From NCBI GenBank assembly GCA_036172245.1, contig JAYWIR010000126.1, positions 62,001 through 92,261 of the forward strand: 30,261 bases of DNA. The letters run 5' to 3'. Under the pieces are notes generated by a model that did no database searches, had not been told where the DNA came from, and saw only the letters and a list, made by a program, of their open reading frames with translations. The position numbers were made by a program, and so were the translations under genes. Below, piece after piece: positions 1,546 through 30,261 of this stretch. The DNA is from Raillietiella orientalis. Its lineage: Eukaryota. The stretch's first letter is position 1. Each line of letters starts with the position of its first letter.

Positions 1546-1571
1546 GAGAGCGGACGTGCTTTTCCTGCGCT
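1546..1571 (+). promoter_or_regulatory. Conserved 5'-terminal motif GAG(A/T)GCGGACGTG-pyrimidine tract-GCGCT, putative internal promoter; also at 3989, 10897, 18663, 26011(-) and 28141
   Basis: The same motif begins all six intact 5' ends at or within a few nt of the junction; promoter function is inferred from general LINE biology. Confidence 0.6.
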
Positions 1572-1640
1572 ACGCTTGCGTGGCAAAGCGGGTGGTTTTT
1601 CTTTCTTGAGTGATTTGGGCGTGCCCATCGTCGGTGTCCG

Positions 1641-3520: not shown

Positions 3521-3988
3521 CACCTGGGCTCGCCAGTCGCCGTCGGATTCGCGCGGCCTGTTGGAACGTCAACGGGCTGAGCGACGACGGGAACAGGCGA
3601 GATACGGCCGACACCCTGCGTGAGCTCCACCTGGCGCTGCTGCAGGAGATCCACGTGATCACCGCGGCAGACGCCCAGGAGATCGAGACGATCGCGGGTG
3701 GTCGGTTGTATTGGCGATGCGGCCTCCGCAACACCTGTGGGGTCGCGTTCTTCGTAAAGCCGGCCATAGACGCTGCTGTAAAGGGCGTGCGGTTTGATGA
3801 CGACGGTCGGATCGATCAGCTGATTCTCAGCTGGTCCGACTGGATCGAACTAATCGTCACAAACGTGTATGGCCTAAGCGGCAAACAGGGGTATTGCGAC
3901 TGCACCAGGCTGTTGGAAACCCTGAAACGCGACTGGCTGGCGGATACCAATGTGGGAAAGGCTCACCTGATAGCGGAAGATTTCAATC
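3520..3988 (+). pseudogene. ORF2 of B, part 1 (APE endonuclease N-terminal half); start codon reads ACA
   Basis: WNVNGL, LLQEIH, TCGVAF, TNVYG and LIAEDFN motifs; cut by insertion of C. Confidence 0.9.
3980..3988 (+). repeat. Left TSD of element C (ATTTCAATC); partner at 9894-9902
   Basis: Perfect 9-bp direct repeat; host frame ...EDFN|LRLL... is restored when C is removed. Confidence 0.92.
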
Positions 3989-4162
3989 GAGTGCGGACGT
4001 GTTTTTCTTCGCTCTCATCTCCGTGCTTTCATCCGCTTCATCTTGGCGTCGTACATTTTGACGACGATGTCGACCCAACCCTAAGCTCCTGAAGTTGGAG
4101 GAACAGTATCCGGATCTGCAATCGCAGAACCGACGGCCGCCTCCACTTCGTCTTTCTCGCCA

Positions 4163-8900: not shown

Positions 8901-9580
8901 GAAACGACAGTTACGCACCGGCGAGGTGGGAGGTTTCCTGCACGACAGCGGGAAGAACCAAACTCCTTGGCACCTGGAAGACAAGTGAGTTGGCGGACGC
9001 CGCCACTCCTCGTGTTACTGCAAAGGGACTCCTCCGGTGGGCAGAAGAACTTGCTGTCACCCCCGAAGAACTTGTAGTCCCTCCACAGTTTATGGACAGT
9101 TCGCTGCTCCCCCTTGCTTGGAAACAAGCCGTGCTGCTTTTCGTTCACTGGGGTTTTCAGTGCAACGAGCGTTGGCATCGTGACTCCGGGGGACTTGCGT
9201 CTGCGAACTGCGTTCGGTGCGGATCGACGGAGTCGATTCCGCACCTACTTCTGGATTGCGGTGTCCTACAAGGACTGTAGCGTAGGCTGGCAACAGCACT
9301 AATGCATCCCGTGGACACCGCAAGAGACTTGCTGCGACGATTTTTCACGCCGAGCTAGCTTTCACTAAGCGCAAGGATTGCAGCCATCGGTTGTATACGC
9401 GCGATAGTTTCCGTCCGCCAGGCGTTGGTAATCAACGGATAGCACCAAGAGGTAATCAGCAAAGCATCCTTCTACATGCAGGCATCATCTAGATGGCCTC
9501 ATTTGACAGAGGACACAAAGAGGAATCTCGCCGCAATACACCGCCGGTTTACACACCCTCAGCAGCGGCCAACCCGGTGA
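5989..9580 (+). pseudogene. ORF2 of C (APE-RT-CCHC), frameshift near 6480 and stops from 9278
   Basis: WNVNAL, NVYAP, GDFN, LSDH, KSPGEDGLP, WRPITLVNSD, DLHKAF, GIRQGDSLSP, YADD, KYLGV, CVRCGSTESIPHLLLDC. Confidence 0.95.
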
Positions 9581-9863
9581 TCATTGCCCTACCCTCCATT
9601 AACTAATTTTGTATTTTCTTTTTACACCCGCGTCCCCATGGGCTCCGGAACATTTTAGGTGCTCATCGTTTAAATCCCCGTGAGTACGGAGCCTAACCGA
9701 AAACCCGTTACCCTTCCCTCCAGTTTTTGATTTTTGTTTGTTTCCTCTCATTCCTTCCACGCTGCGAGCGGTTTGTTTACCAGGCCTGCGTGCAGGTAAT
9801 TTTTCTATGTTCTCTGTCGTTCTGTTGGTTGGGTAAATTGTCCCTGACTAGTTTATTATTATT

Positions 9864-9893
9864 AATAAACGCCCCGGCGTGACCGGGTGATAA
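9864..9893 (+). terminator. AATAAA followed by a terminal GC hairpin and very short A tail (3' end of C); equivalents at 16359-16388, 28092-28123, 10237-10266(-), and a variant at 20635-20665
   Basis: AATAAACGCCCCGGCGTGACCGGGTG directly before the TSD. Confidence 0.75.
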
Positions 9894-9902
9894 ATTTCAA
9901 TC

Positions 9903-10236
9903 TCCGACTGCTAACAGGTGAGCCCAAAACACAATAGAACGCGATGAACGAGTTGTACGCCGCCATGCGTGCGCGTAACTTGTTCGCGGGTGAGTAGGGA
10001 ATGGTCTTTAGCATCGAATACGTCTTCCTCGACGCTGACCTGTGTTCACAGGTCGGCAAACGGGGGAGGGTTGCGTCGACGTTGTCGGACCACTCCCGGT
10101 TAATTTTCGAGATGCGGCCTCGCGACAAGAGACCGCCATCCGGGGATTGGCGTCTACCGGGGGACCGGACGCGACTCTCAGGTGCGAAGGAACACCTTCG
10201 CGAATACCTGAGAGGCGTCACGCTCCGGAATCTCCA
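9903..10236 (+). pseudogene. ORF2 of B, part 2 (APE C-terminal half and linker start)
   Basis: LRLL..., SIEYVFLD, LSDHSRL, WRLPGD, HLREYLRG; ends at the 3' tail of antisense element H. Confidence 0.9.
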
Positions 10237-10449
10237 TTGAAACCCGGGTGCGCCGGGATGTTTATTCTCACGAATAAACCTATACAATCTGTGACTGGAC
10301 CAGTAGTCCAGCGACGCCCTGGAAAGATATAGCTTGCCGGGCTACCGGTGCGCAGACCGGCGCGGTCCACCTTGGCAGCAGAGGAAAGGGGGAACGAAAC
10401 AAAAAGAAAACAAAAAATAAACAAAAATCAGGTAGGGAGCGAGAAGGGA

Positions 10450-10896
10450 TCAAAGTCTGCTGTGAGGGTCCGTCATCCTCTGGAGGATGCCGGCAAGCTG
10501 TTTCTGCGTGTGTGGTTCCAGATGGGGCCATCGCGTCGCCATCCTGAGGAAACGGGCGGCATACACGTTGGCATCCCTGTCGCTGGATCCTCCCGTCTCT
10601 TTGCTCCATGCCACGACGATCCCGCGTAGGCAGCACAGGGCTGAAAGCGAGGCCGCTGGAGGCAGGGCGTCACGGACGAAGAGGGGGCCCAAAGCGTCTC
10701 TGGGGTTGCCTCCGGGGATCCCCAGGGCTGCGGCAAACCGTTCTTACAAGGGACGGAGGGCAACACAATCCACTAACAGGTGGGGGAGGTATTCCCTCTC
10801 CCCGCACCTGACACAATAAGGGTTGACACCCCCCGCGTCCAGTGGTGTCGGCAGGCGTTGCAAGGAAGCCCCCAATGCAACACCAGCACCGCCGAC
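10450..10896 (-). pseudogene. ORF2 of H, C-terminal part
   Basis: VLHWGLPCNA, HLLVDC, PLFVRDAL, RWPHL motifs homologous to C-termini of E, G and B. Confidence 0.88.
10885..10896 (+). repeat. Left TSD of element E (AGCACCGCCGAC); partner AGCAGTGCCGAC at 16389-16400
   Basis: 10/12 identity; host H reading frame restored on removal of E. Confidence 0.85.
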
Positions 10897-10971
10897 GGTC
10901 AGACGTGTTCTCTGCGCGCTCCTGACTCGCTCGACTTTATTGGTGTAGTGCGGTGCATCAGTGGTCGGGGG

Positions 10972-12573
10972 ATGGCAGAAATGCCTGATCCCGTTACTAG
11001 TGAATGTGGCGTGGGGGCCGGGCGAACGTCCCCCCTACCCATGGAGATAGGGGCACCTGCCCCGTAAGCTTCGTCCCCCGCGCCGGCGAGGGACTACAGC
11101 GCCGTGGTCGCCGCGCCATCTGCAGCGGCCATCGCCGAGGCCCAGGCCTACAAGGCCTACAACTACAACCCGAGTCTGCTGTATAAGTTAGGCCGGGTGT
11201 TTGATGACCGTGTGGCGCGCTCCTTCGAGAAGGAGCTCCACCGTTTGAACATTAACAAGGAGGATCTGCTGGGTCTCTCCATCCGCAGCGGGGGACAGCA
11301 TGTCGAGTTGACCTGCATAGAAGCAGGGTTGGCGCAAAGACTACTGCGAACCCCCGTCAGGGTCGAGGGCCGCCAGATCTTCTCTGTCCCGGTGGACAAC
11401 TCAATAGTTGTCCACCTTCGTGGAATCACCGTGCGGATGTCACCGAGCGCCGTTAGGGCTGAACTCAGCAAATTCGGCACCGTACACGCGCTGTGGCTGA
11501 AGCCCAACAGGTTCCGTACTTATGACGGACTCCTGAGCGGACTCGCCGCGGCACGTGTGACTGTGAATAATGACATTGGGGTTCCCCATAAACTAGTAGT
11601 CGACGGAGATTCTGTCGACATCTGGTATCTGGGGAAACCCAAATACTGTGCGTTTTCTGATGGTACGGGGCACGTGAAGAAACGCTGCCTCAACATCACT
11701 TGCCGCAAGTGCGAGGCAATCGGGCACACAGAAGAAGTGTGCCCCAAAAAGACTTCGCGCGCGCCGGCTGCTGCCGTGAGCGGCACGAACGCGAGCAAGA
11801 ATCCTGGCAAGACCAGGCCGCCGTCCTAAAATACGGTTGACCCGGAGCCAGCCAAAAAGGGCATCCCGACCACCCCGTCTGCAGAAACGCAGGCAACCGA
11901 GGTGGAAGGAGAAGAGCCTGGCTGGCAAAAGGTCAGTCCAAAGAAAAAGAAAGAAAAAAAGGACGTAAATAATAAAAATAAAGTCCCTGCAAAAACCGCG
12001 AAACCCGCGAAAAAGCAGGGACTGAAAAAATGCACGGACGCACTGGAGCGCCTTGCAGACGCCGAAGTGCCGTGCGAACAGGACGTTGCCGTGTGCAACA
12101 TCGCTGACAGCCCCGTCGCTGTGCAAACAGCGTCCGAGGGCTGCGGCGAGGGGGAGAGCCGCGATGACGCGGGCTTTGCAATAGCAGCCGCCGAGCTCGC
12201 CGCCAGTCAGCAGCCTCCCGCAAAGGTCGGGAAGAAGGCCGTTCGACGTCCGGCCGAGAGGAGGGGGACCGGGACCTCGGACTCGGACCCGGAGACCGGA
12301 CACGCACCATCCGCATCTGCACCCCCGAGGAAGACCGGAAGGAAAATCCGTAACCCGAGGAGGATCGTCTCCTCCGAGGATGGGTAATCCTCCGGAAACG
12401 AGGGTGCGGCGAGCGTGGGAGAGATGGACACGAGTCCTGAACTCCCACGATCGGTCGAGACGGAGCCGATGGAGACGGAGGGGGTCTTCGAGCCGCCCCC
12501 CACCGCACAGGAGAAAGCCGGCGTCCCGCCCCTAGGTGAGGCGGGAGACGCAGCATCACTTTCTTAGCAGTAA
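10972..12573 (+). pseudogene. ORF1 of E with in-frame stops (11065, 11827, 12385)
   Basis: ORF pieces 11104-11829 and 11902-12387 are in one frame; WYLGKPKYC, CRKCEAIGHTEEVC, GWQKV. Confidence 0.88.
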
Positions 12574-15500
12574 TGCCGGGACTCGCCACCTGCCGTCAAA
12601 TACGCATCGCCAGCTGGAACGTCAACGGGCTTTGCAATGACGGCAGGAGACGAGACATAGCTGCCACCTTGCAAGCCTTCGACCTCGTGCTGCTGCAGGA
12701 GATCCATGAGATTTCCGCAGAACATGCGCGGGAGATCGAACGGATAGCAGGTGGTCAGCTTATGTGGCGATGCGGCCACCGCCGTACGCGCGGGGTCGCT
12801 TTCCTTCTGAAGCCTGCCTTACAACGCGCGGTGCGGAAAGTTCGTTTCGATGAGGCAGGTCGGGTCGGGCAAATCCCCTTCAGGTGGTCCGACTCCATCA
12901 ATCTCGTCGTCACGAACGTGTACGCGCCGAGCGGCGGTCACGCGCGCGTGGCACGGACGGCGTTTTTCCGTGCGTTCAAGCGCGACTGGCTGTCGGAGGC
13001 AGGCGCGCGCACGGCGCACCTGATAGCCGGCGATTTTAATATTCGCCTGCTATCAGGTGCGGCGAGGACAGAGGCCACCCCGGTTAACGAGATGTGCGCT
13101 GCGGTGCACGCATCCAACTTGTTAGCTGGGGATACCGGGATGGAACGGAGCGTGGACCACGTCTTCCTCGACGATCATCTGCGCTGTCGCGTGGGCAGGC
13201 GAGGTAAGATACAGTCCGCAGTCTCCGACCACTCCCGCGTGGAACTCGTCATTCGCCCGCGCGACAGGGGGCCTCCCGCGCAGGCGTGGCGTCTACCGGG
13301 GGACTGGCTGACCAAGCCAGGCGCAGCGGAACACCTCCGCGCGTTCTTGCGAGGTTTCAGCCTGCAGACGCTCGACGACTGGGACGATTTGAAAGTCTCG
13401 GTGCGAGAGTTCTGCCAACAGTTCCCCATGGACCGTCTCCCGAAAGGATTTGGAGAAGGTGTTCGGAACGATAGGGCTTACCTGCAGGCCCGTAGTTACT
13501 CCCGAACACCAGACGTCCGAAGACTGGCGGAATTTAAAGCCGGGGCCGAGCGGCAGGCCTGGCAATCGGGGTCGCCCAGCCTGCTGGACGACGAAGGCCA
13601 AGAGCACTCGGCCCCGGCAGAGGTGAGTAGCCTAGTGCACGACTATTATTCTTCCCTGTACACCAGGGTGCCTCCAGACCGGGAATTTTTCCAATTTTTG
13701 CTTCCGGACGGTGCCCCGGCGATCGGGGAAGAAGAGAGAGTACGCCTGGACGAGCCTTTCACGATGGGTGAAATCATCACCCCAATAGGGAAGCTCAAAA
13801 GGCGGAAGTCACCGTGGGAAGACGGCCTGCCCGCGGAGTTTTTTCAGTGCTTCGAGGCGGAGCTGGCTCCCCTGGTGCAGCGGCTAACGCTGCTGATCCG
13901 GGAGACAGGAGACGTTCCCGCCTCCTTCCGATCGGCACGTATGCGTCTCCTACCGAAAGGAGGAGACTTACGGAACCTCAACAATTGGCGTCCGATTACC
14001 GTACTGAACGCGGACGCCAAGCTGGTTGCGAAGCTATGGTCGGAGCGAATGGGGCGGGTGGCGGAAAGCTTCATCAGCCCGGAGCAGACCTACGCTGTTC
14101 CCGGGCGAAGCATGGACGCCAACCTGCTCTTCGCGAACACCTGGTTCGAACTTCAAAGAACCAGAATGAATGGAGGGAACAAGGTCGGCAGCCCGATTTG
14201 CAGGACGTCCGCTGGTGGTTCGCGGGATAGTAGGGAGAGAGAAGGGGCCCTCGCGGTCGCTGTCGATTTGCGGAAAGCATTCGACAGTGTCGACCAGGAG
14301 CTCCTGCTGGAGCTTCTGAAGCGCTTGGGCTTCCCGGCATCCTTATTGGCCTTTTTGCGCTCTTGCTGGCGCGACGCGCTGACCAACATTTCTTTCAGGG
14401 GAAGGAACGTGTTCGGTGTGCCGGTGCGCCGCGGAATACGGCAGGGTGATAGCTTGAGCCCCTTGCTCTTCAGCACCTACTTCGAGTTGGTGCTGATGGC
14501 ATTCAGGGAGACTCTTGGTCGCCTGCCGCGCGTGTGCCCAGGTACACCGGCCTTGGCGGCGTATGCGGACGATCTTCTGCTGCTGCTCCCCATGTCCACC
14601 TGGGCGTCGGCAATCGAAAACTTTTTCGAGCTGCTGCGTCGCGGGACAGGACTGGAGGTGAACAGAGGAAAGTCGTCCGTTGTTGCAGTCGGTTCCTCGT
14701 GGGCAGAGCAGCTAGACTGGTCTCGCTTGGGGATCCGCACGGTACGGTACCTTAAGTACCTCGGTGTGCCGTTGGGGGACTACTCCCAACGGAACAATGG
14801 TCTTGCTGCCTCCAAAAGGCCGAGAGAGCGATCGGCCCGTTCCTGGATGGCAAGTTCTTCTTGCCGGAACGTGCCGTGCTGTGGAACACTTTCGTGGCCC
14901 CCCTGTTTCGCTCCTTGCTTTTTGTTTGTCTATCACCCCGTGGTGTGAGAACACGTACAAAGGACCTCCTCAGAATCGCCATCTGGGGCAGAGAAAGGCC
15001 CCGCGCGCGTTGGAAGGACTTGTGCGCCCCTCGTCGCGATGGGGGCCTTGGCCTCCTCACGCTGGAGCGCCTCGAACTGCAGCTGCAGTTCCGAACAATC
15101 GCCCTAGTGGCGAAGTTGTGGAGCGCCAGCTGGTGCGAGCCTGCACGATGCCTGGATCAGCGAGTCGGCGGCTGTGCGGGAATGTCTACCTTCCTAGCGC
15201 GCCTAAAAAGCCGGTACCTGTTCCACTGCGGACTGGCTCTTCGGCGAGTGGCGAAGCTGACCAGGAAGAACACCTGGATCTCCTGCCGGCCCGCGAACAA
15301 CACTTCCTGGTTGCAGGAAAGCCTTCGCACGTGGGCCCAGATCGAGGAAGCGAGCCCGGAGTTGCGGCATCGAATGCTGCACTCCTATCATAAGAGGCGC
15401 TCGCTGCAGGACATCATCGTGCAGCCCGCCTTGAGTGCGTGGGCTGAGAAGACCTCCCTTGCCACAGCTCTGTCTCACCTGAAAGAACATCTGGGCAGTA

Positions 15501-16138
15501 GCCAGCCGGCCATGTGGGAGGTCCGGTGTACGATCAGGGACACTGAGAAAGAACAAGGTGGTTGGACCACGGGTTAGCTTGCTGATGCCGCGATCCCAAG
15601 TTCCCCACCGAGAGGACTGTTGCGCTGGGGCGAGCTGCTGTGCATCCCGCGGGATGAACTTGAGTGGCCCCCAGTGCTGAGGAATACTCGGGCCCTCCCC
15701 CTAAAGTGGCAGGAGTCGGCGTTCCTGGTGTTGCACTGGAGACTCCCCAGAAACGCCCGCCGCTCTCATTGGACGAGGGGGGTTGTGGACCCAAACTGTG
15801 TTAGGTGCAGGGAACGAGAAACTCTCCCGCACCTGCTCGTTGACTGTGTTGCCCTGCGGCCCCTGTGATTGCGCTTTGCAACAGCCGTTGGTGCACCCTT
15901 GCACGCTCCCAGAGACGTTTTAAAGCGCCTCTTCGTGCGCGACGCCCTTTCGCCTGCCGCAACCCTTGCAGCCCTCTGCTGCCTACAAGGGATTGTAGCG
16001 GCTTGGAGCACCGCCACTGGTGGACCGAACGATAGGGACATCTTGTGCTACGCCCTGCGCTTCCTGAGGACGGCAGCCAGATGGACCCATCTGGGACACA
16101 TGCAGTTTGAACTTGCCGGCATCCTGCAAAGGATGTAG
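12573..16138 (+). pseudogene. ORF2 of E (APE-RT-CCHC); 791-codon open N-terminal portion, frameshift near 14785, later stops
   Basis: SWNVNGL, LLQE, NVYAP, GDFN, SDH, WRPITVLNAD, DLRKAFDSV, RQGDSLSP, YADD, CVRCRERETLPHLLVDC. Confidence 0.95.
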
Positions 16139-16400
16139 AGGACGTCTCCAGCGGAACGTGATCCCTTCCCCAACCCCTCCCTGCTTTTGTAAATAGTGTT
16201 TTCTTTTTGTTTTTTTCTATTTGTCCCTTCCCCCTCCGCTGCCGAGTCGACCTTGGGAGCCTGCGTGCTGCCCACTCGGCGAGTTCAGAAGAACATCTTC
16301 TGAACACTGTAGGGGAGATAGCCCTACATTTGCTTGTTTATTTTTTTTTCATTAAAGAAATAAACGCCCCGGCGCACCCGGGTGTAAAAGCAGTGCCGAC

Positions 16401-18655
16401 TGTTGCCACTTCATGGGGAGGGTGCGGGAGTCCATGAGCACCGGGGGCCACTCGAGATGTTCCTCTGGAACATCCAGCAGCTCTCATCAGCGCAACAGTC
16501 CATTTGGGGTGGTCCTAGGGGTCGCAGCGTTGGTGAGCTGACCCGTCCTCCAATCCCCGATCTTCTTTGCCCTGCTGGCGAACTTGACAGTAACCTCCCA
16601 TTGTGCCGCGACGTCGCTGCCCAGATGTTCCCGTAGGGTAGGCAGTACCGCAGGAAGGGAGGTTCTGTGTGCCCACGCTCTCCTTCGGGGATTCTCGATG
16701 ATTTCTCGGAGCGTGCGGTGGGCATGCGGCCCGAACAGAGCTATGCGCTCGTGTTGCGGGCTCGGCTCCTGAATCATCGCCCACGTGCGGACGGTTTCCT
16801 GCAACCAGGCAGGACCGTTCGCGGGGCGTACGAGGAACCGCGCCGAGTTGTTCTTCACCAGCTTGGCCGCCCTCCGAAGTTGAAGTCCGCAGTGGCAGAT
16901 GGGGCTTCGGAGTGCAAATTAAGACGAGAGTCCCGCATTGCCAATGGCCCGCTCGACGAGGAGACGTTCAGGGAGGCACCAAGGGGTGCACCAATTTTCT
17001 GCCGTAAAGGCAACAACTCGGAACTGGAGCTGTAGCTCCAGCCGCTCCTACCTCAGGAGGCCCAGACCACCATCCCAACGAGGAGCGCACAAATCCAAAA
17101 GACGGACTGGGGGCCTCCCTCTGCCCCAAAGGGCGATCCTCAGGATGTCCTTCGTCCTCTTCGTTGAATCCGCTCAGGGGGGGCAAAAAAAAAGCAAGGG
17201 GCGAAGGAGGGGGGCCGCAAACGCGTTGCACGCCGCGGCCCGTTCCTGCAGGTAGAACCTGCCGTCCTGGAACGGGCCGATCGCCGCCTGAGCCTTCTGA
17301 AGGCAGCCGGACCACGCTTCCCCATGGGAGCAGTCCCCCAACGGCACACCAAGGTACTTGAAGTACCTCACCGTGGGGATCCCCAAACAGACCCAGTCCT
17401 GCTGCCCTGCCCACGCCGCTCCGACTGGCATTACGGACGACTTCGCCGTGTTCACCGTCAGTCCTGTTCCCCGACTCAGCAGGTCGAAGAAGTCCTCGAC
17501 CGCCTAGGCCGGGGTGGACATAGGCAGCAGCAGCATAAGGTCGTCCGCGTACACCCAAACCGCAGGCGTATTGGGACAATCGCCCGGCAGGTGCGCAAGA
17601 GTCTCCATGTACGCTCTCAGCACCAATTCGAAATAAGCGCTGAAGAGCAAGGGGCTGAGGCTGTCTCCCTGCTGTATGCCGCGTCGCACCGGTACGCCGT
17701 ACACGGTGAATCCCATAAAAAAAACATTAATAAGCGCGTCGCGCCAGCTGGAGCGCAGGTAGGCCAGCAAAGAGGCCGGGAAGTTCAAGCGTTCCAGAAG
17801 CTCAAAAGGAGTTTCTGGTCGACGCAATCGAATGCTTCATGCAAATCGACTGCTACCGCGAGGGCTCCTCTCCCCTCCCGACCATCTCGTCTTCCACCGA
17901 CGGACGCATTGGAATTCCGGTTGCTTATTATGCTCCTTCCTTGTTGGAGCTCTAACCATGTGGAAGTGTGGAACAGGTTGGCCTCCATACTTCGCCCGGG
18001 AACAGCATATGTCTGTTCCGAGCTGATGAAGATGTTGGTGACCCGTCCCAGGCGCTCTGCCCACAGCTTGGCTAGCAACTTGGAGTCCGCATTCACTATT
18101 GTGATAGGATGCCAGGTGTTCATGCTCCGTAGGTCTCCTTTCTTCGGGAGGAGCCGCACCTTTGCTGAACGAAACGAGGTGGGAACGTCACCTGTTTCAC
18201 GGATCAGCAAGGTGAGCTGATGTACCAGGGGAGTAAGCTCTGCCGCGAAAGCTTGATAAAACTCCGCAGGCAGGCCGTCCTCCCCTGAAGCCTTTCGCCT
18301 CTTGAGCTTTCCGATGGCGGAGGTGATCTCGCCCATCGTGAAAGGCTCGTCGAGGTTCCTTTTCTCCTCCTCCTTGATTGCTGGAGCACCTTCCGGAAGC
18401 AGGAGTTGTGAGACAGCCTGCTCCGGAGGCGCCCTGGCGTACAGGGAGGAGTGAAATTTCCTCACTATCCCGCGTTTCTGAGCGGGAACCGAGTGCTCCC
18501 GGCCCTGGTCGTCCAACATGCTGGCCGACTCGGATTGCCAGGCTTGCCTCTCGGCTCCCGCTCGATACTCTGCTAACCTGCGCATGTCAAGGGTTCTCGC
18601 GTAACGTCGGGCCTGAAGATAGCACCTTTCGTTACGCGGCCCCTCCTCAAATCCC
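16401..18655 (-). pseudogene. ORF2 of H, middle part (linker, RT, thumb)
   Basis: ORFs 17785-18585, 17504-17827, 17174-17455 and 16487-16858; DLHEAFDCVDQ, QQGDSLSP, YADD, KYLGVPL. Confidence 0.92.
18645..18655 (+). repeat. Left TSD of element G (CCTCAAATCCC); partner CCCCAAATCCC at 20666-20676
   Basis: 10/11 identity; encodes host G-F-(E/G) on the minus strand. Confidence 0.82.
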
Positions 18656-18756
18656 TCTCCTAGAGAGCGGACGTGTTTTTCCGGCGCTCCGCGAACGAGC
18701 AGCGGAAAGCGGTTTTTTCTAGTTCAGTGTGTGCTTTTTCACATCGTTGGTGTCCG

Positions 18757-19623
18757 ATGGAATCGCTGCCAAAAGACACCACGATGGAGGTAGGCGTGAT
18801 GGAGGCTAGCCCCCCCCCACGACCTACAGAATCAGAAGCATCCGTCCCGGAATCGCTCTCGTCTCCCAAGACGAGGAGCTGGAGCGCCATGGTCACCGCG
18901 CAGAGCGCGGAAACCTTGGCTGAGCAAGCGGCCTACAGGGCCTCCGGATATAAACCATCCTTGGTTTATAAGGTAGGAAACCTGTTCGACGGTCGCACCG
19001 CGCGTGTCTTTAGCAAGGCACTACAGAAATTCCCCGTGCGTGAGGAGGATCTTGACGGCCTCGCCGTACTCAGCGGGGGGCAACGCGTGGAGGTCGTCTG
19101 CAAAGACCTAGCCTTAGCACAGCGCCTCATCAACACCCCGCTGAATGTGGCTGGCCGAAAGATCCTACCCGTTAGCATGGACCGCTCCGTACTGGTGCAT
19201 CTAACGGGGATCACGAACCGCATGACGCGCTCTGCGGTGAACGCGGAATTGAAGAAATACGGAGATGTGCACGCGCTTTGGCCAAAGCCAACCATTTTTG
19301 ACGGCTATAACAGCCTCTTAGGTGGCCAGGCAGCAGCGCGTGTCAAAGTGAACGAGAATGCTGGGTTAGCCCACAAACTGGAGGTAGGGAAGGAGCTAGT
19401 TGACCTCTGGTACGTGGGGAAACCCCGCTATTGTGGCTACTGCGATGCAGTAGGGCATGTGCGCAGGCGGTGCCCGAATATCGAGTACCACTTGTGCGGA
19501 GAAAACGGACACGTCCGTCGTGTGTGCCCTAAACGCCCTGGTCAGAGATTACGGCTGGACGGTATGCAGCCCCGCCAACTCCTCCGCCTGGCTAGAGGAA
19601 TCCGTTGCGACGTGGGCAGCTGA
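18757..19623 (+). CDS. Truncated but open ORF1 of G (288 aa from ATG, zinc knuckles, aberrant C-terminus)
   Basis: Uninterrupted frame MESLPKDTT...CGYCDAVGHVRRRC...YHLCGENGHVRRVC (second knuckle has C to Y); expression unknown. Confidence 0.6.
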   Translation: MESLPKDTTMEVGVMEASPPPRPTESEASVPESLSSPKTRSWSAMVTAQSAETLAEQAAYRASGYKPSLVYKVGNLFDGRTARVFSKALQKFPVREEDLDGLAVLSGGQRVEVVCKDLALAQRLINTPLNVAGRKILPVSMDRSVLVHLTGITNRMTRSAVNAELKKYGDVHALWPKPTIFDGYNSLLGGQAAARVKVNENAGLAHKLEVGKELVDLWYVGKPRYCGYCDAVGHVRRRCPNIEYHLCGENGHVRRVCPKRPGQRLRLDGMQPRQLLRLARGIRCDVGS

Positions 19624-20449
19624 ACCTCCAGACTTCCCCGGACTGGAACCGCCTTCGATTCGGTCCCAACGACCGCTGCACACTGCGGAGTAAACTGGAG
19701 TGTCCCGCCAGGAGCACGTGGGCGCAGCCACCTTTCTAGCTTTGACCCTGCCCTTCCTCCGGAGAACTTTAACCAGCGGCCGCAAGCCGAATTGGCAAGT
19801 CTCCTGCCGAATCGCAGGCAAGGAGAAGAAGATGAGCGGTTAAACCATGGGAGAACTGGCGGATGCCACGACCCCGAGTGCCCTCCCTCGTGGACTTCGT
19901 CGATGGGGCGAGCTGCTCGGCATTCCGACGAATGACCTGAAGTGGCCCTCAATACTGATAAGATCCAGTCTTCTCCCCCTGAAGTCGCAAGAGTCGGCGA
20001 TGCTGCTGTTGCACTGGGGTCTACCCTGCAACGCGCGCCGCTTTCACTGGACGCGGTAGAGTGTAAGGCCTGAGTGTGCCAGGTGTGGAGAGCGAAAATC
20101 GCTCCCCCAGCTTCTAGTTGACTGGGCTGCCCTCCTTCCCCTGTGGGAACGGTTCGGGACGACCTTCGGTCTCCCAACGGGCAGCGCGGCCAGAGACGTT
20201 CTTCGGCCCCTCTTCGTGCGGGACGCCCTACAGCCCGCTGCAGCTCTCGCAGCCCTCTGCTGCATCCGGGGCATCGTGGCGGCATGAAGCGACATTCTTG
20301 ACGAAGAAGTGGATGCCAACGTGAGGGATGTCATCCCGTATGCGGTCTGCTTCATGCGGAGAGCAGCGAGATGGCCCCATCTGGGAAGCATGAAGATGGA
20401 CCTGGAGGGAATCCTGCGAAGGATGGACCCTCCTCTATGTGGAACGTGA
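19538..20449 (+). pseudogene. ORF2 C-terminal remnant of G
   Basis: AWLEESVATWA, ELADATTPSALPRGLRRWGELL, LLLHWGLPCNA, RWPHL, with stops and frameshifts. Confidence 0.85.
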
Positions 20450-20676
20450 TCTTTTCCTCTCCCTTCAAACTCTTTGTGTTTTCCTTTATTTTTATTTTTA
20501 ATTTTGTTTTGATCCCCATCCCCCTCCACTGCCGAGGAGCGTCACGCTGGGCTGCGTCCCGGCGTCCCGGCAGGTCCGGTGTTGTGTGGCTATTAGTGGG
20601 GCCTTGTACCACGTTTTCTTGTAGTGTTCTTTACAATAAACGCTTCTTGCGTTCCTGAATGGGAACCCCAAATCCC

Positions 20677-21553
20677 GCAGGTAGGCGATGCAGGGGGAAC
20701 TGGTCGCAGAACTCCTGGACCCACCGCTTGAAGCGGTCCCAGTCCTGAAGTGTCTGCATCCAGAAGCTCCGAATAAACGTGCGGAGGTGCTCAGCCGCGT
20801 CGGGAAACTTCAGCCAGTCCCCTGGCAGACGCCACGCTGACGAGAGGGGGCCCTTGTCGCGCAGATGCACTTCGAACATGATCCGACCATGGTCCGACAG
20901 CTCGAATGGTACCTTGCCGCGCCTGCCACCCGAGAGCATTGGTGCTGATCAAGGTACACGTGATCGATGCTGCTTTCCATGGCCGTGTCCCCAGCCAACA
21001 AGTTGCGCGTGTTCATTTCTGCGCACAACTCGTTGACGCGGTCGTTCAGTGTATCCGGCGCACCTGAAAGCAGGCGCAGGTTGAAATCACTTGCGATCAG
21101 GTGCGCTTTGCGAACTCCTTCATCGGTCAGCCAATCGCGTCTCAGGGCAAGGTACAATTCCCTTCTTGCCTTCGCCCTCAACGCGGAGTTTCTGCTAGGA
21201 GCGTATAGGTTGGTGACGACCAGGTCGATAGAGTCGGACGAGCTGAGAGTCAGCTGACCGACGCGACCTGCGTCATCGAACCGAACGTCCTTTATTGAGG
21301 TCTCGATGGCTGGCCGAAGCAGGAAGGCGACACCGTTTGATTTCGCGGTGTCGCAACGCCACAACAGCCGCCCACCCGAGATCCGTTCGATCTCCCGAGC
21401 TTGATCTCCGGAGATCACATGGATCTCCTGCAGCAGCACCAGGTCGAAGGATGTCAGGGTGGCGGCCACGTCACGCTTCTTGCCGTCGTCGCTTAGCCCG
21501 TTCACGTTCCAACAGGCGATCAGAAGACGACGGCGAGAGGCGATTCCCGCCAT
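20677..21553 (-). pseudogene. ORF2 of H, APE endonuclease part, frameshift near 20940
   Basis: MAGIASRRRLLIACWNVNGL, LLQEIH, NLYAP, SDFN, IDHVYLD, LSDH. Confidence 0.92.
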
Positions 21554-22838
21554 TATGGCTAAGAAAGTGGCGTCGCGACACCTGCCGCGGGGCAGGTGTA
21601 GGAAAGGTCCATCGGTATGAAGACGGAGGCCTCTTCAGGCGCCTGGGGTACCTGTTCGGCCTCCATCCTCACCATCCCCTCCGTGTCCAAGCGTGGAATT
21701 CCCTTGGGCGACGGGTCCCGGGAGTTTCCCACGCTCATGGCACTCTCGCTACCGGAAGCCATCTCTTCCCCTTCGTCGGGGGAGACGATCTTCCGGGGCA
21801 TTGTGGACTTTTGTCCTGCCTTTTTGCGGGGTGCCGCGGAGATGAATGCTGTGTTTCCGGCCTTCACCTCGGGGTCGGAAGTGGCCGACTCCTGAGGGGA
21901 AGCCGGACGCCTGACGACCTTCTTGCCAGCCTTGGGGGCAACCGGCTGCAGCGAGGCAGCCAGCTCCTCCGCGGCGCGCTCGAAGGCGACGTCATCGAGC
22001 GTGGGCTCGATGACGGACGCCGCCGCCTCGCTCCCCTTCTTGTTGACTTTGTCAGCGGAGGGTTGAGCAGAGGCAGCAGCGAGTTCTTTAGCGCCGCATC
22101 CGTCGATGGCGGGAATCCGCTCTACAACGAAGCAACAGCTTTTAATTTTTACGCTGCGCAGAGCAGTTTCGCTCCGTTTCCCCACGTTCTTTTCCTTCTT
22201 ATGGGAGTTTTTCTTGGGGTCGACCTTCTGCCACCCTGGCTCTTGACCCTCGCCCTCGACCTTTTCGGCGGTTTTCGCCAAGTTCTCGGGGCTGTCCTTC
22301 GCCTTGGTGGCGGAGGTGACCTCCTTAGCAGCAGCACGAGCTGCAAGCTTCTTTCTCTTTTTAGCCGCTCCCTTTCTCACGTTTTTCGCGGACACGAAGC
22401 AGACTGTGTTTTGGGGGCACACCAGACAGGTGTGCCCGCTTGTTTGCATTGCTGGCACTGCACGCTCGGACACCTCATTTCAAGGTGACGAAAGCTGCTG
22501 TAGCAGCCGCAATACTTGGGTTTCCCCACGTACCACACGGCAACGGATTCACCGTTGACGGTGAGTTTGTGGGGAATCTCACATCCCTCGCGAACCGTCA
22601 CTCGCGCTGCACCCAGGCCGCCAAGCATCCCGTCGTAATCGACAAAAGGAGTAGGCTTTCCCCACAGCGCGTGGACAGTCAATTCGTTCCGGACGGCCTC
22701 CTTCGTCATCCGGAACGTGATACCGGTCAGGTGAATGATCACCGAACGGTCTTCAGTAATGGGGAGAAGCCTCCGGCTGCCCATAATTACGGAAGTTCCC
22801 AGAAGTCTCTGCGCAAGAGTTTCCTCCTAGCAGATAAC
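21553..22838 (-). pseudogene. ORF1 of H, N-terminus missing, frameshift near 22430
   Basis: ORFs 22377-22784 and 21559-22473; WYVGKPKYCGC, CQQCKQAG, GWQKV. Confidence 0.88.
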
Positions 22839-24605
22839 GCTCTCAGTATCAACTGAAAGTAGGTACTGAAGAGCAAGGGGCTCAGGCTGTCTCCTGCCGG
22901 ATCCCACGCAGCACCGGCACGCCGTGCACGGTCTGCCCGCTAAAAGTGACATTGATGAGCGCGTCGCGCTAGCAGGAGCGCAGAGAGGCCACTAATGAAA
23001 CCGGGAAGCCCAAGCGTTCCAGAAGCTCCAGAAGGAGATTCTGGTCGACGCAATCGAATGATTTTGGCAAGTCAATTGCGAACGCAAGGGATCCCTCCCC
23101 CACCCGACCATCCAACCTCTTGCCGGCGCACGCACCGGAATTCCGGCTGCTTACCACGCTCCTTTCATATTGGAGCTCTAGCCACGTGGAAGCGTGGAAC
23201 AGGTTCGCCTCCATGCTTCGCCCGGGAACAGCATATGTCTGTTCCGGGCTGATAAAGATGTTTTCTACCCGTCCCACACGCTCTGCCTAAACCTCAGCCA
23301 GCAACTTGGCGTCCGCATTCACTATTTTTATGAAACGCCAGTTGTTAATGCTCCTCAGATCTCCTCCCTTAGGGAGGAGCTGCACCTGTGCCGAACGAAA
23401 CGAGGCGGGAACATCACTTGTTTTGCGTATCAGCAAGGTGAGTTGCTGTACCAGGGGGGTAAGCTCAGCCTCGAAAGTTTGATAAAACTCCGCAAGCAGG
23501 CCGTCCTCCCCTGGAGCCTTTCGCCTCTTGAGATTTCCGATGGCCGAGAGGATCTCGTCCATCGTGAAAGGCTCGTCGAGGTTCTTTCTCTGCTCCTCCC
23601 CGATCGCTGGAGCGCCTTTTGGAAGCAAGAGTCGTGAGACGTTCCTCTCCGGAGGTGCCCTGGCATACAGGGAGTTGTAGTAACTTCGCAGCAGGCCGCG
23701 GATTTGGGCAGGTGCCGAGTGCTCCTGGCCCTGATCGTCCAGTAAGCTGGCCGATCCGGAATGCCAGGCTTTCCTCTCGGCTCCCGCTTTGTATTCCGCC
23801 AGCCTGCGGATGTCGGGGGTCCTGGCGTAACGACGGGCCTGCAGGTAGGCTCCTTTGTTACAGACCCCGTTCCAAAAACCCGTAGGTAGGCGGTGTAGAG
23901 GGAACTGGTCGCAGAACTTCTGGACCGACCGCTTGAAGCGGTCCCAATCCTGGAGTGTCCGCAGTCTGAAGCTCCGTATGAACGTGCGGAGATGTTCCGC
24001 CGCGTCCGGGAACTTCAGCCAGTACCCTGGGAGACGCCACGCTGACGAGAGGGGGCCCTTGTCGCGCGGATGGATCTCGAGGACTAGCGGGCGATGGTCG
24101 GACAGCTCGCACGGTAACTTGCCGCGCCTGCCCACGCGAGGACACTGGTGCTCGTCAAGAAACACGTGGTCAATGCTGTCTTCCACCCCCGGTGCACTGG
24201 CCAACAGATTACAGGTGTGCACCGCCATGCACACCTCGTTGACCAGGTCACGCTCGGGATTCTGCTCATCTGGTTTCAGGCGAACGTTGAAATCGCCTGG
24301 AACCAGATGGGCATTCCGCACGCCTGCTTCGGTCAGCCAGTCTCGCCGGAGGGCAAGGAAAAACTCTTTCCTCGCCCTCCTGTTCATCAAGTCCTTGCCG
24401 CTCGGTGCGTACACGTTCATCACGATCAGATCCATCGAGTCGGACCAGCTGAGAGTCAGCTGGCCGACATGACCGTAATCGTCGAACGGCACGCCCCGAG
24501 CCGCGGCCTCGACGGCTGGCCGGAGCAGGTAGGAGACACCGCAACATTTCGGTCTCCCACACCTGTACCATAGCCGCCCTTCGGAGATCCGCCCTCCGAA
24601 GATCC
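22838..24605 (-). pseudogene. ORF2 fragment of I (partial APE, linker, N-terminal RT)
   Basis: NVYAP, GDFN, IDHVFLD, LSDH, KAPGEDGL, DLPKSFDCVDQ; stops at 23287 and 22969. Confidence 0.92.
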
Positions 24606-25923
24606 GTATCCGTGGGCCAGCCTTGGAGGGTTCTGGCTGCAACGAGGCTGCCAGCTGTTACGCGGCTCGCGAGAAGGCTACGTCATCGATGGTGGTGTCG
24701 ATGACGGAAGCCGCTGCCGGCTCGCTCCCCTCGCTGTTGACTGTGTGAACAGAGGGGAGGTCGTTTATAGCGGCGAGTTCTTTCCGGAAGCGTTCGGCAA
24801 CATCGAGAACGCGTTCGACAACGACGCTGCACTCTTTAATTATCGCTCTTCCCTGCTCATTCTTCTTCTGTTGGTAGGCGATTTTCTTTTCCATCCTCCT
24901 CTCCTTCTTTGATTTTTTGGCCGTTGTCACTTGCCACCCAGTCTCCTTGCCGGCTCCCTCAACTTTTTGGGCGTTGGTCGCCGGGGTCTCGGGTGCGGCC
25001 TGGTTCTTGGGCGCGGGTGGCACAGCCTTCGCGGCAGCTTTCGCTGCCAGCCTTTTCTGCAGAAGCCGGGCGCGTTTTTTAAGGTTTCTCTTGGAAACCA
25101 ACCGCACTGCTGCTTTTAAGCACACCTCGGTCGTCTGGCCCATTGTGCCGCATACTTTGCACTGCACATTGGGAAACCTCTTTTTGAGGTGGCCCGACGT
25201 ATTGCAGAAGCCACAGTATTTCGGCTTCCCCACATACCAGAGGTCGACGGTTTCGCCTTCGACCACCAGTTTGTGGGGAAGAGTGCAGCCATCCCGAACG
25301 GTCACGCGCGCAGCAGTGAGGCTGTGTTGCAGCCCCGTGTAGTCCTCGAAAGGACTAACTTTCGTCCACTGCGCGTGGACCGTTCCGTATTTCTCCAACG
25401 CGGCGCGAACCTGTTCCTTGCGCATCCGCGCGGTAACACTTAACAGGTGGACCACCATGCTGCGGTCCGCCGTAATAGGGAGAAGCCTGCGCGTCCCCAT
25501 CACCAAGGGGGTTTTAAGCCGTCGCTGGGCCAGCTCTGCTTGTTTGCAGATGACCTCAACGTACTGACTTCCGCTGCGGATGGTCATAGCTCTGAGCTCC
25601 TCCTCTTTCACATCGAGAGCGCGCATGCCCTTCGAGAAGGCGCGCGCGCTCTCTAAAGAATATAAATTGCCTACCTTGTAGAACAATTAGGGGTTGTACC
25701 CCTTTTCCACATAGGCCGACAATTCCGCCGCGGCTGCAGGCGATGGCGCCGACACAACGGCGCTCCACGCCCGCGCTGCAGCGGGGACCGATTCTGTGGG
25801 GGCGGATGCCCCCATCTCCATCGCCTCTGGGGGCGACGTTTCCGCCGCTTTCTGGCTCTCCATCGCCTCTGGGGGATGCGTTGCCGCTGCCCCCTGGCTA
25901 TCCCTGGTGGTCGCGTCAGGCAT
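24606..25923 (-). pseudogene. ORF1 of I, stops at 25687 and 24658, C-terminus deleted
   Basis: YKVGNL, WYVGKPKYCGFC, CKVCGTMG, GWQV, ECSVVVERV. Confidence 0.88.
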
Positions 25924-26016
25924 CGCCGCCTGATCGACCAGCGAACCACACGACGCTTGCACTGGGGGAGACTTCCTGGCACGAGGAGCACCGAGAAAAC
26001 ACGTCCGCCCTAGAGC

Positions 26017-27913
26017 GCACAAGGCGTTCGACTGTGTAGACCAGTAACTTTTCTTGGAGCTCCTGGGTCGCATGGGCTTCCCACCCTCCCTGATTTCCTA
26101 CCTGCGCTCTTTCTGTCGGAATGCGATGATTACCGTCTCTTTCAGTGGACAGAAGTTGTATGGCGTGCCGGTGCGGCAATGCATCAGGCAGGGCGATAGC
26201 GTCAGCCCACTGCTCTTCACCACCTACTTTGAGTTGGTGCTGAGAGCGTACAGGGTGACTTTGGCCCCCTCGCCGAGCTCGTGCCCCGGCACGCCCGCCG
26301 AAGCAGCGTACGCCGACGATCTTTTCCTTCTGTAGCCGATGTCCACCCCGGCGAAGGCCGTCAGGGAGTTCTTCGATCTGCTTAGCCGCGGGACCGGACT
26401 TGCGGTGAACAGGGCGAAGTCGACGGTGGTTCCAGTCGGTGCGGCGTGGGCTGAGCAGCAGGACGGTCCGCTTGGGGATCCCCACGGCAAGGTGCTTGAA
26501 GTACCTTAGTGTGCCGTTTGGGGACTGCTACCCAGCGGAAGCGTGGTCCGGTTGCCTCCAAAAAGTGGAAACGGCGAACAGCCCGTTCCTGAAAGACAAG
26601 TTTCTTCTTCCGGAACGGGCCGCGGTATGGAAGGCGTTCGCGGCTTCTATCCTCCGCCACTGCTTTTTGTTTGCCCCGTCCCCAGAGAGTTGAAAAAACG
26701 GACGAAGGACCTCCTGAGAATTGCATTTTGGGGAAGAGGGAGGCCTCGATTCCCGTTGAAGGACTTGTGTGCTCCACGTCGGGATGGCGGTCTCGGCCTC
26801 TTGACGATGGAGCAAGTAGAGATTCAGCTGCGGTGGCAAGCCCTCGCAATCGCAGCGAAGTTATGGAGCACCCCTTGGTGCCCTCCGGCCCGCCTCCTGG
26901 GCAACCGTGTGTCCCTGTGCGATGAAACTCGCGTCTTTTCTTCTGAGCCGTGGCCGGAAGATGCGAAGATGCGGCCTACTGCTCGGGCGCATGGCAACAT
27001 TGGCCAAGGAGAACAGTTGGATGGTTTGCTGCCCCGCCAACTCTCCGCCTGGCTGAAGGAGAATACTGGAACGTGGGCAGCGGTTAACCAGAGCAGCCAC
27101 GAAACATGGAATCGTCTCCGATGCAGCCCCTACGCGCGCTGCACGCTGCGGAATCTCCTGGAGAGTCCAGCAAGATGCACGTGGGCAGGGACGACCTGCC
27201 TAGCTACGGCGCTGCCCTTCCTGAGGAGGGCACTGCACAGCAGCTGGACGCCAAGGTGGCAAGTCTCCTGCTGCATCGAGGGACGCGAAAAGTTGATCAG
27301 CGGCTGGACAACAGAAGAACTGGCCGACGACACGACCCCGAGCGTCCAGCCGCGAGGACTAAGAAGATAAGGCGAGCTGCTGGCCATCCCTATGGATGTG
27401 CTGAAGTGGCCCCCGCTTCTTCAGGAATCCAGGATTCTGCCCCTTAAGTGGAAAGAGTCGGCGTTGCTGTTGTTGCATTGGGGTTCACCCTGCAACGTAC
27501 GCCGCTCTCACTGGAGAAGACGAGTTGTGGATCCTGCGTGTGTCAGTTGCGGAGAGCGGGAATCGCTCTCCCACCTTATTGTGGACTGTGCTGCCCTCCT
27601 TCCCCTTTGGGAACGGTTTGGGACGATCCTCGGGCTCCCTACGGGCAGTTCCCCTAGAGACGTTCTTCGGCCCCTCTTCGTGAAGTACGCCCTGCAGCCA
27701 GCCGCCGCCCTTGCAGCCTTGTGCTGCGTCCGAGACATCGAGGCGGCATGGAGCGACACCAACAAGGAAGCAGTGGGTCAACACGCGAGGGATGTCATCC
27801 CATATGCCCAACGCTTGTTGCGGAGAGCTGCTGGATGGCCTCAACTGGGGAATATACGGATGGACCTCGAGCGCTTTCTTCAACGGATGGGCCCTCCTCT
27901 CAGCGAACAGTGA
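26017..27913 (+). pseudogene. ORF2 RT-to-C-terminus fragment (inferred part 3 of B)
   Basis: HKAFDCVDQ, RQGDSVSP, YADD, KYLSVP, CVSCGERESLSHLIVDC; several stops and frameshifts. Confidence 0.92.
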
Positions 27914-27989
27914 TCCCTTCGCTGCCCCCCAACCTCATTTGTTTGTTTGCGTTTTTGTTCTTATTTTCGTTTTTCCCCATCCCCTTTCG

Positions 27990-28034
27990 CTGCCGGGGAG
28001 TGCCACGCCGGGCTGCGTCCCGGCGTCCCGGTAG
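27990..28034 (+). other. Conserved 3' UTR stem-loop with CTGCG(T/C) loop; homologues at 9777-9799, 10344-10361(-), 16241-16280 and 20544-20565
   Basis: Perfect 8-bp stem ACGCCGGG/CCCGGCGT around CTGCGT, nested in CTGCCGGG/CCCGGTAG; same loop with different paired stems in other copies. Confidence 0.75.
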
Positions 28035-28123
28035 GTCCCGTGCAAAAGGCCGTGAGCGGGGCCTGGTACCGCAATTGTAAAGTTTTTTATAAATAAACGC
28101 CGCGGGCGTACCCGGGTGGCAAA

Positions 28124-28140
28124 GCCGAATCCCCGCTGCG
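28124..28140 (+). repeat. Right TSD of B and left flank of B' (GCCGAATCCCCGCTGCG)
   Basis: Matches 1529-1545; a 17-nt island of antisense host ORF2 between a 3' tail and a 5' end. Confidence 0.8.
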
Positions 28141-28234
28141 GAGAGCGGACGTGCTTTTCCTGCGCTCCGCCTGCTTGGCAAAGCGAATGGTTTTTTTTCC
28201 TGAGTGATTTGTGCGTGCACATCGTCGGTGTCCG

Positions 28235-30113: not shown

Positions 30114-30261
30114 CACCTGGGCTCGCCAGTCGCCGTCGGATTCGCGCGGCCAGTTGGAACGTCAACGGGCTGCGCGACGACGGGAACAGGCGAGATACGG
30201 CCGACACCCTGCGTGAGCTCGACCTGGCGCTGCTGCAGGAGATCCACGTGATCACCGCGGC
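30113..30261 (+). pseudogene. Start of ORF2 of B' (APE), start codon reads ACA
   Basis: SWNVNGL and LLQEIH motifs. Confidence 0.88.

Follow-up and report, generated by a model that had tools for sequence, protein, structure and literature searches.

A candidate conserved hairpin with a CUGCG(U/C) hexaloop in the 3' untranslated regions of L1-clade retrotransposons from Raillietiella orientalis

Template choice by long interspersed nuclear elements (LINEs) of the L1 clade is usually ascribed to poly(A) and to cis-preference, a matter that is settled for few LINE families; in LINEs of the L2 clade, the stem-loop of the RNA tail precedes short tandem repeats. The present work concerns five 3' untranslated regions (UTRs) of L1-clade LINEs in a stretch of 30,261 nucleotides (nt) from Raillietiella orientalis (assembly GCA_036172245.1, contig JAYWIR010000126.1, positions 62,001 to 92,261 of the forward strand; this whole stretch is called the window and all coordinates below are its own). 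Each UTR carries CTGCGT or CTGCGC as the hexaloop of a hairpin, here named HP1; in its two-tier form an outer helix is added. The closest described system is the monocot L1 lineage around LINE1-1_ZM, in which a 3' hairpin has a variable stem with compensatory changes and a conserved loop (Ohshima, 2012; PMC3472496), and is common to the short interspersed nuclear elements (SINEs) ZmSINE2/3 and to sorghum SINEs. In the zebrafish L2-clade LINEs ZfL2-1/2, the protein encoded by the second open reading frame (ORF), ORF2p, is described as specific in its reading of the loop and general in that of the stem (PMC4176376). Human L1 ORF2p was seen, with Alu-like templates, to grip a stem-loop upstream of the A tract by its CTS, RBD and thumb (Thawani et al., 2023; PMC10830416), and a positionally conserved 3' UTR stem-loop was proposed for human L1 and Alu (PMC5135761).

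HP1 resembles the monocot hairpin in that an L1-clade LINE carries in its 3' UTR a hairpin whose stem letters vary while its loop is conserved, a pattern that was read there as stringent template recognition. The two also differ. First, the monocot hairpin lies in the last ~45 nt of elements with poly(A) ends, whereas the HP1 loop lies 102-122 nt from an end of 0-4 A. Second, the monocot loop is UCU and the loop here is CUGCG(U/C). Third, SINE partners are known for the monocot hairpin and none was seen in the window. Compared with the L2-clade tails (eel UnaL2, zebrafish ZfL2-1/2), in which a bulge or internal loop matters, HP1 has a conserved 5' bulge of 6-7 nt; those stem-loops stand at the extreme 3' end and their function was proven by retrotransposition and binding assays (PMC4176376; PMC1636434), whereas HP1 is a candidate drawn from sequence and belongs to L1-clade instead of L2-clade elements. 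For human L1 ORF2p, the best solved relative of the ORF2 product here, a stem-loop that precedes a single-stranded 3' segment helps to define the start of reverse transcription (PMC10830416); that contact is largely not sequence-specific and needs a long poly(A), and the stem-loop abuts the A tract, a place held here not by HP1 but by a second hairpin, HP4 (see below). The stem-loop of PMC5135761, as presented there, belongs to mammalian L1 with its poly(A)-dependent mechanism, unlike the HP1 family.

A search of the window with an nhmmer profile of the UTR returned exactly five matches (E<=2e-40; next match E=0.68), in agreement with the number of 3' ends given in a preliminary description of this DNA. 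The copies compared, B, G, H, E and C, are all decayed and, B and G being sisters, they represent about four independent lineages. The UTRs are about 210-310 nt long. That of copy B (27914..28123, plus strand) follows the stop TGA at 27911-13 and consists of a T-rich tract (~27938-27974), a C-rich run, a GCTGCC box, HP1, a hairpin named HP3, AATAAA, HP4 and AAA. The other UTRs are G (20450..20672, plus strand; T-rich tract ~20472-20511; element end between 20668 and 20672), H (10240..10449, minus strand; stop TGA 10452-10450; T-rich tract ~10427-10393), E (16139..16388, plus strand; premature stop 16136-38, conserved TGATCC ~16159, T-rich tract ~16194-16233, end ...GGGTGTAAA at 16388) and C (9581..9893, plus strand; T-rich tract ~9724-9744), which is the longest and most diverged. 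The common order, from 5' to 3', is a TGA within TGATCC, a T-rich tract of 20-40 nt, a C-rich run, the GCTGCC box, HP1, a variable hairpin, HP3, a U-run, AATAAAC, the terminal hairpin HP4, 2-6 nt and 0-4 A.

The alignment of the five UTRs (267 columns) has a mean column identity of 62% and 48 invariant columns, the longest invariant runs being AATAAAC (7 columns), CTGCG (5 columns) and the CTGC of the upstream GCTGCC box (4 columns). As pairwise identity between the UTRs is only 48-61% (74% for B and G), the CTGCG loop block stands out. The first five loop bases are invariant, and the last is T in four copies and C in H. The distance from the end of the loop to AATAAA is 74, 77, 83, 92 and 72 nt in B, G, H, E and C, and HP1 follows the T-rich tract in each copy, roughly 70-100 nt before AATAAA, as previously described; the positions and letters reported earlier for the five hairpins (B 28005-28026, G 20544-20565, H 10361-10344 on the minus strand, E 16254-16274, C 9777-9799) also proved exact.

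In copy B (27990..28034, plus strand), an outer stem CTGCCGGG/CCCGGTAG is followed by a 7-nt 5' bulge, an inner stem (28005-28012/28019-28026) and the loop CTGCGT (28013-28018); the local minimum free energy (MFE) fold is exactly this two-tier HP1, at -29.6 kcal/mol, with a closing-pair probability of 0.97. Copy G (20529..20573, plus strand) has an outer stem CTGCCG/CGGCAG plus GGA/TCC, a 6-nt 5' bulge, an inner stem with one U·G pair (20544-20551/20558-20565) and the loop CTGCGT (20552-20557), and HP1 is present in both its local and its whole-UTR MFE folds. Copy E (16241..16280, plus strand) combines an outer stem GCCGAGT/ACTCGGC (16241-47/16274-80), a 7-nt 5' bulge, an inner stem TGGGAGC/GCT-G-CCCA with a bulged G, and the loop CTGCGT (16261-16266); two-tier HP1 is again its local MFE fold (-20.5 kcal/mol, closing-pair probability 0.96). 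B, G and E thus share one local MFE architecture, that is, an outer helix starting from the GCTGCC box, a 5' bulge of 6-7 nt, an inner helix and the hexaloop, and E reaches it with other stem letters. In copy H (10335..10377, minus strand), an inner stem GCCGGT/ACCGGT (10361-10356/10349-10344) closes the loop CTGCGC (10355-10350) above a short outer stem TGCC/GGCA; HP1 is present in the whole-UTR MFE fold, the local MFE fold is another one, and the closing-pair probability is 0.01. The counterpart in copy C (9777..9799, plus strand) is weak: TTACC-A-G-GC faces GC-A-GGTAA around the loop CTGCGT (9786-9791), there is no outer stem, the local MFE fold places CTGCG inside a stem and the closing-pair probability is 0.00.

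Stem quality therefore varies. The stem has 8 contiguous pairs in B, 8 in G (one G·U) and 6 in H (one G·U); that of E is interrupted (3 pairs, a bulged G, 4 pairs), and that of C more so (2 pairs, a bulged G and an A·A mismatch, 5 pairs). For this reason the earlier statement that covarying, still-paired stems exist in all five copies was too strong: it applies to B, G and H, and to E with its bulge, but poorly to C.

Several observations suggest that pairing around the loop exceeds what CTGCG would collect by chance. The window contains 65 CTGCGY hexamers on its two strands, and at least 5 contiguous flanking pairs are found around only 3 of them, all of which are UTR copies; by the same criterion 612 hexaloop hairpins occur in 2 x 30261 positions, a background of about 1%. 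When two-tier HP1 was imposed on the alignment, 79.7% of the cells were paired, compared with 30-47% when the partners were slid by 1-3 columns. Seven of its 16 pairs change on both sides, a number reached in 7 of 500 shuffles, and its covariation score was 0.444, which 1 of 500 shuffles reached, compared with 0.247. The pair that closes the loop is G-C, G-C, U-A, C-G and C-G across the copies, hence of three types, all complementary. Without prompting, RNAalifold recovered HP1 from the short alignment; for the whole UTR its prediction comprised only HP1, with its outer stem from the conserved GCTGCC box, and the terminal hairpin. The consensus fold was more stable for the sense than for the antisense strand (-14.5 versus -11.9 kcal/mol), and the sense strand was better in four of the five single copies.

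The same analyses yielded results that weigh against a selected structure, and against the functional reading of HP1 proposed below. The five copies, about four lineages and all decayed, form a small sample. The z-scores of local 65-nt folds were only -0.5 to -1.4. When the loop was forced open and its flanks were shuffled, folds as good were obtained, per 1000, 8 times for B, 58 for G, 267 for H, 49 for E and 195 for C, so that the per-copy energy test is not significant in H and C and marginal in G and E. H and C favour other local folds, and the whole-UTR MFE folds of B, E and C lack HP1. The column-shuffle test gave z=-3.9 for HP1 (0 of 300 as low), or -2.6 with grouped shuffles (4 of 300), but these z-scores are uninformative because a coding control, the last ~620 alignment columns of ORF2, also passes easily, with z<=-3 in 9 of 38 windows. 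In that control up to 5 double-change pairs were counted, compared with 6 of 14 for HP1, which ranked first by this measure among all the windows scored, by a small margin.

These results could be accounted for if HP1 had no structural function: a GC-rich, CCGG-laden stretch would fold incidentally, CTGCG would be kept as a linear site for a protein that binds RNA or DNA, or would reflect chance plus the anchoring of the alignment, and the covariation would be what five sequences and a structure-seeking program produce. Besides the energy tests and the coding control, the location of CTGCG in a stem of the best fold of C is in line with such an account. So is the likeness, in B, G and H, between the terminal CCCGGCG..CCCGG and the 3' arm of the hairpin, which permits alternative pairings. 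An incidental origin is harder to reconcile with the stem letters of E, which are wholly unlike those of B, G and H and yet give the same two-tier fold, with the three complementary types of closing pair, with the fall in pairing in the slid controls and with the first rank of HP1 for double changes. A site in double-stranded DNA, in particular, would preserve the stem letters and not complementarity alone; the stem letters are not conserved, and that candidate was rejected. We consider an incidental hairpin somewhat unlikely. In conclusion, HP1 is a moderately supported candidate for a conserved RNA hairpin of the sense strand, the coding control weakening the statistics and five copies being too few for proof.

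An invariant loop carried by sense-strand stems that keep their pairing and change their letters is the pattern described for LINE self-recognition, and for this reason we favour, with a probability of about 0.45, hence tentatively, the reading of HP1 as a recognition element for the LINE's own machinery. HP1 would be one module of a structured 3' UTR, in which the two-tier stem presents the CUGCG(U/C) hexaloop in the sense RNA, the outer helix being formed from the GCUGCC box and parted from the inner helix by the 6-7 nt bulge on the 5' side. We infer that the hairpin folds in vivo and is bound by a protein of the element itself. This protein, for which ORF2p is a purely conjectural first candidate, would read the loop base-specifically and recognize the stem by its shape alone; in this way it would single out the RNA for target-primed reverse transcription, a selection of the 'stringent' type. 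The sequence-conserved HP4, which lies after AAUAAA and ahead of the terminal 0-4 A, would in turn bring the 3' end to the enzyme. Two further points weigh against this reading. The position of HP1 is unusual, as the LINE recognition hairpins described so far lie in the last 45-80 nt, and no SINE or other non-autonomous element with an HP1 tail was found in the window with the UTR and HP1 profiles (best extra matches, E=0.68 and 0.12).

At least three hairpins of the UTR are conserved, HP1 among them; HP3, HP4 and the outer helix of HP1 had not been included in the preliminary description. HP3 lies between HP1 and AATAAA and was seen in B (28056..28072, plus strand; GCGG...CCGC), G (20596..20612, plus strand; GTGG...CCAC, a compensatory change from C-G to U-A relative to B), H (10294..10312, minus strand; (G)CTGGAC...GTCCAG(T)) and E (16308..16328, plus strand; TGTAGGG...CCCTACA). 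Its GG/CC core is conserved and its outer pairs change in a compensatory manner (pair series G-C/C-G/U-A); 83% of the cells were paired, compared with 37-60% after sliding.

HP4 directly follows AATAAA and ends 2-6 nt before the terminal A-run. It was found at 28098-28118 in B (AATAAA 28092-97; the copy end, 28092..28123, finishes with GCAAA), 10260-10241 in H (minus strand, 10240..10266; AATAAA 10266-61), 16365-16384 in E (16359..16388; AATAAA 16359-64, then TAAA after the hairpin) and 9870-9889 in C (9864..9893; AATAAA 9864-69, then ATAA(A)). In E it has the form CGCCCCGG-CGCA-CCCGGGTG; E and H have almost the same letters there, and those of B and C are close to them. The terminal region of G (20635..20668, plus strand; AATAAA 20635-40) is diverged and contains another small hairpin, ACGC-TTCTT-GCGT. 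HP4 was predicted by RNAalifold and showed no demonstrable covariation in the five copies (176 of 500 shuffles scored as high). The extreme 3' position that is typical of stringent tails is that of HP4 and not that of HP1. Because HP4 has the position usual for LINE recognition stem-loops, it qualifies at least as well as HP1 for an anchor of the reverse transcriptase; for the anchoring of the priming site it is probably a better candidate than HP1, since it abuts the short A-run.

All five copies end with 0-4 A, about 25-30 nt past AATAAA, and none has the long 3' poly(A) tail of the relaxed L1 type. The missing poly(A) is weak evidence because the tails of old copies can decay; such ends agree better with a start of synthesis at a defined 3' end than with a start on a long poly(A).

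The signal region is itself folded in some copies: AATAAAC forms the 3' arm of a hairpin of 8-12 base pairs (bp) with an upstream GTTTATT in H (10247-10266, minus strand; an 8-bp hairpin with GTTTATTC), E (16330-16365) and C (9846-9870); this hairpin is partial in G, and B folds differently. These features raise the possibility that HP1, the U-rich tract and the other hairpins together form a signal directed to the host, for 3'-end formation, stability or export, in which an RNA-binding protein of the host would be held by the loop. Polyadenylation is enhanced by U-rich elements upstream, and since the element carries AAUAAA but can have no downstream element, the cleavage site presumably being its last base, selection would favour upstream enhancers as well as folds by which these come close to AAUAAA. 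The conservation of AATAAAC, which exceeds that of any other UTR block, the end of the element about 25-30 nt beyond it, the presence of the T-rich tract ahead of HP1 in all five copies, and the folding of AAUAAAC with GUUUAUU in H, E and C, which suggests selection on the folding around the signal, all agree with this explanation. However, ~120-190 nt separate the T-rich tract from AATAAA, a long distance for an upstream enhancer, and an unchanging, base-specific hexaloop carried by stems that vary matches what has been described for LINE self-recognition. A host-directed role is in our view rather improbable. Two other candidates for a known type of RNA signal were rejected: a poly(A)-clamping triple-helix element, as HP1 lacks a U-rich internal loop, and a known hexaloop element such as the iron-responsive element, as there was no Rfam match.

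The elements that carry HP1 were classified from their proteins. The window is a nest of diverged L1-clade non-long-terminal-repeat retrotransposons, on both strands and with a copy-to-copy identity of 65-82%. ORF2 of copy E (12573-14948) matched Exo_endo_phos (APE-type endonuclease; E=9e-15) and RVT_1 (E=1.4e-21) in Pfam, in the order N-terminal APE endonuclease, then reverse transcriptase. A match to zf-RVT at the C-terminus of ORF2 in copy B was weak (E=0.0016, under the Pfam cut-off), and a C-x2-C-x7-H-x4-C motif can be read after the reverse transcriptase in the translations of B, E and C. Among solved structures human L1 ORF2p was the best match (E=4.8e-46), R2 proteins reaching only 1e-16 or weaker. 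Judged from these sequences, the elements belong to the L1 clade by every feature tested except the long poly(A) tail and an ORF1 CCHC domain that stayed sub-threshold, and the L1/Tx1-like label of the preliminary description is upheld at the level of the L1 clade. In the protein database a single close relative of ORF2 was found (P0001, 78% identity), which stops short of the C-terminus; no other exceeds 30% identity, and ORF2 is only distantly related to any named protein. A protein-atlas look-up for ORF2 returned 'APE+RT LINE' and nothing more.

The weak matches of ORF1 bear on which protein might read HP1. Retroviral nucleocapsids and the loops of packaging signals provide the analogy for a reading in which HP1 would be a packaging signal recognized by ORF1p instead of ORF2p, the loop being a high-affinity site for a CCHC zinc knuckle. 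The ORF1 translations matched zf-CCHC with E values of 0.0014-0.0026 and gave weak matches to knuckle-containing chains in PDB; in addition, HP1 is far from the 3' end, where the priming anchor of ORF2p is expected and where HP4 is found instead. Against this, the zinc-knuckle matches are below the Pfam cut-off, and in those LINEs that have been studied, it is ORF2p for which reading of the 3' stem-loop was demonstrated. We regard a packaging signal read by ORF1p as highly doubtful. By the same analogy, the two hairpins might divide the work: HP1 would be a distal specificity or packaging signal, read base by base by a protein of the element, possibly a CCHC ORF1p, while the separate terminal hairpin would position the 3' end for ORF2p, and reverse transcription would start essentially without poly(A). 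This combination appears quite improbable; if it were true, the family would represent a bipartite 'stringent' L1, unlike mammalian L1 and unlike the single-hairpin tails described so far.

Returning to HP1 as a self-recognition element, we searched for earlier descriptions and for relatives. A permissive Rfam scan of the whole window gave nothing relevant; a weak match to mir-875 within a retrotransposon ORF (24255-24318; E=0.1; 26 bits, the gathering score being 84) is most likely due to chance. No match to the CTGCG loop motif was obtained in a full-text literature search. Of 230 pattern stretches matched in metagenome contigs by a protein-guided scan, none was a relative, and the DNA pattern of the 3' end had one match in these contigs, in an unrelated bacterial coding region; searches for further copies in genome contigs and viral contigs gave no match. 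The suggestion that the element was possibly undescribed thus stands for the CUGCG(U/C) motif itself, which is without a match in Rfam or in the literature search, but not for its kind, since this kind of hairpin is already in print for the L1 clade (PMC3472496).

If HP1 acts as proposed, it would offer a compact RNA-protein pair for study, and non-autonomous passengers could be found by their tail. More L1-clade lineages with structured, loop-conserved tails and almost no A-tail would support stringent recognition as ancestral in the clade (PMC3472496). What this window adds is modest: one more probable example, not a proven one.

Coding potential across the hairpin was also considered. In copy B the reading frame is open for 60 codons past the ORF2 stop TGA (27914-28096), to the TAA inside AATAAA. 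A coding read-through extension was rejected, as the frame of G closes after 20 codons and indels break the frame in the alignment; because G does not keep it, the open frame in B is probably a chance effect of the T/C-rich sequence. An antisense ORF across the hairpin was likewise rejected: the UTRs of E and G share sequence with ORFs of the minus strand, but this overlap is not consistent.

The copies are nested in one another. An older element on the minus strand (10240-22500), whose 3' end is H, was split into three pieces when E (10897-16388) and G (18656-20668) inserted into it; copy B starts inside ORF2 and is thus 5'-truncated. Target-site duplications flank G (8 nt, CAAATCCC, at 18648-55 and 20669-76) and E (about 12 nt, 10 of 12 positions matching, at 10885-96 and 16389-16400), which, for L1-clade LINEs, argues for target-primed reverse transcription as the mode of movement. 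A further element, A (from 1540), is seemingly split in the same manner by C (about 3885-9893). Over 2140 nt, the two copies at 1529-3668 and 28124-30261 show 95.8% identity, so part of the LINE family was active recently; the 3' ends of this pair are outside the window or interrupted.

The starts of A (1540) and G (18656) lie at the homologous position of antisense ORF2 in two different older copies. With an identity of about 71%, A and G represent different subfamilies, and their two host copies are about 70% identical. The site of insertion (1529-1540 and 18648-18656; compare 23855-23885) is intact in three other copies, and an 11-nt look-alike of it precedes element F, at 28124-28134. The shared position could reflect a target preference; the insertion site of E is different from that of A and G.

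At the other end of the elements, a partner of the HP1 loop in the 5' UTR was sought and rejected, the profile match at 28131-28189 being weak (E=0.68-1.6). Alignment of full-length copies revealed a conserved 5' start with GCGGACGTG, a T-run and GCGCTCC, at 1540-1580, 28135-28175, 18656-18700 and 10897-10935 on the plus strand and at 26020-25980 on the minus strand; this start may be the promoter or the core of the 5' UTR.

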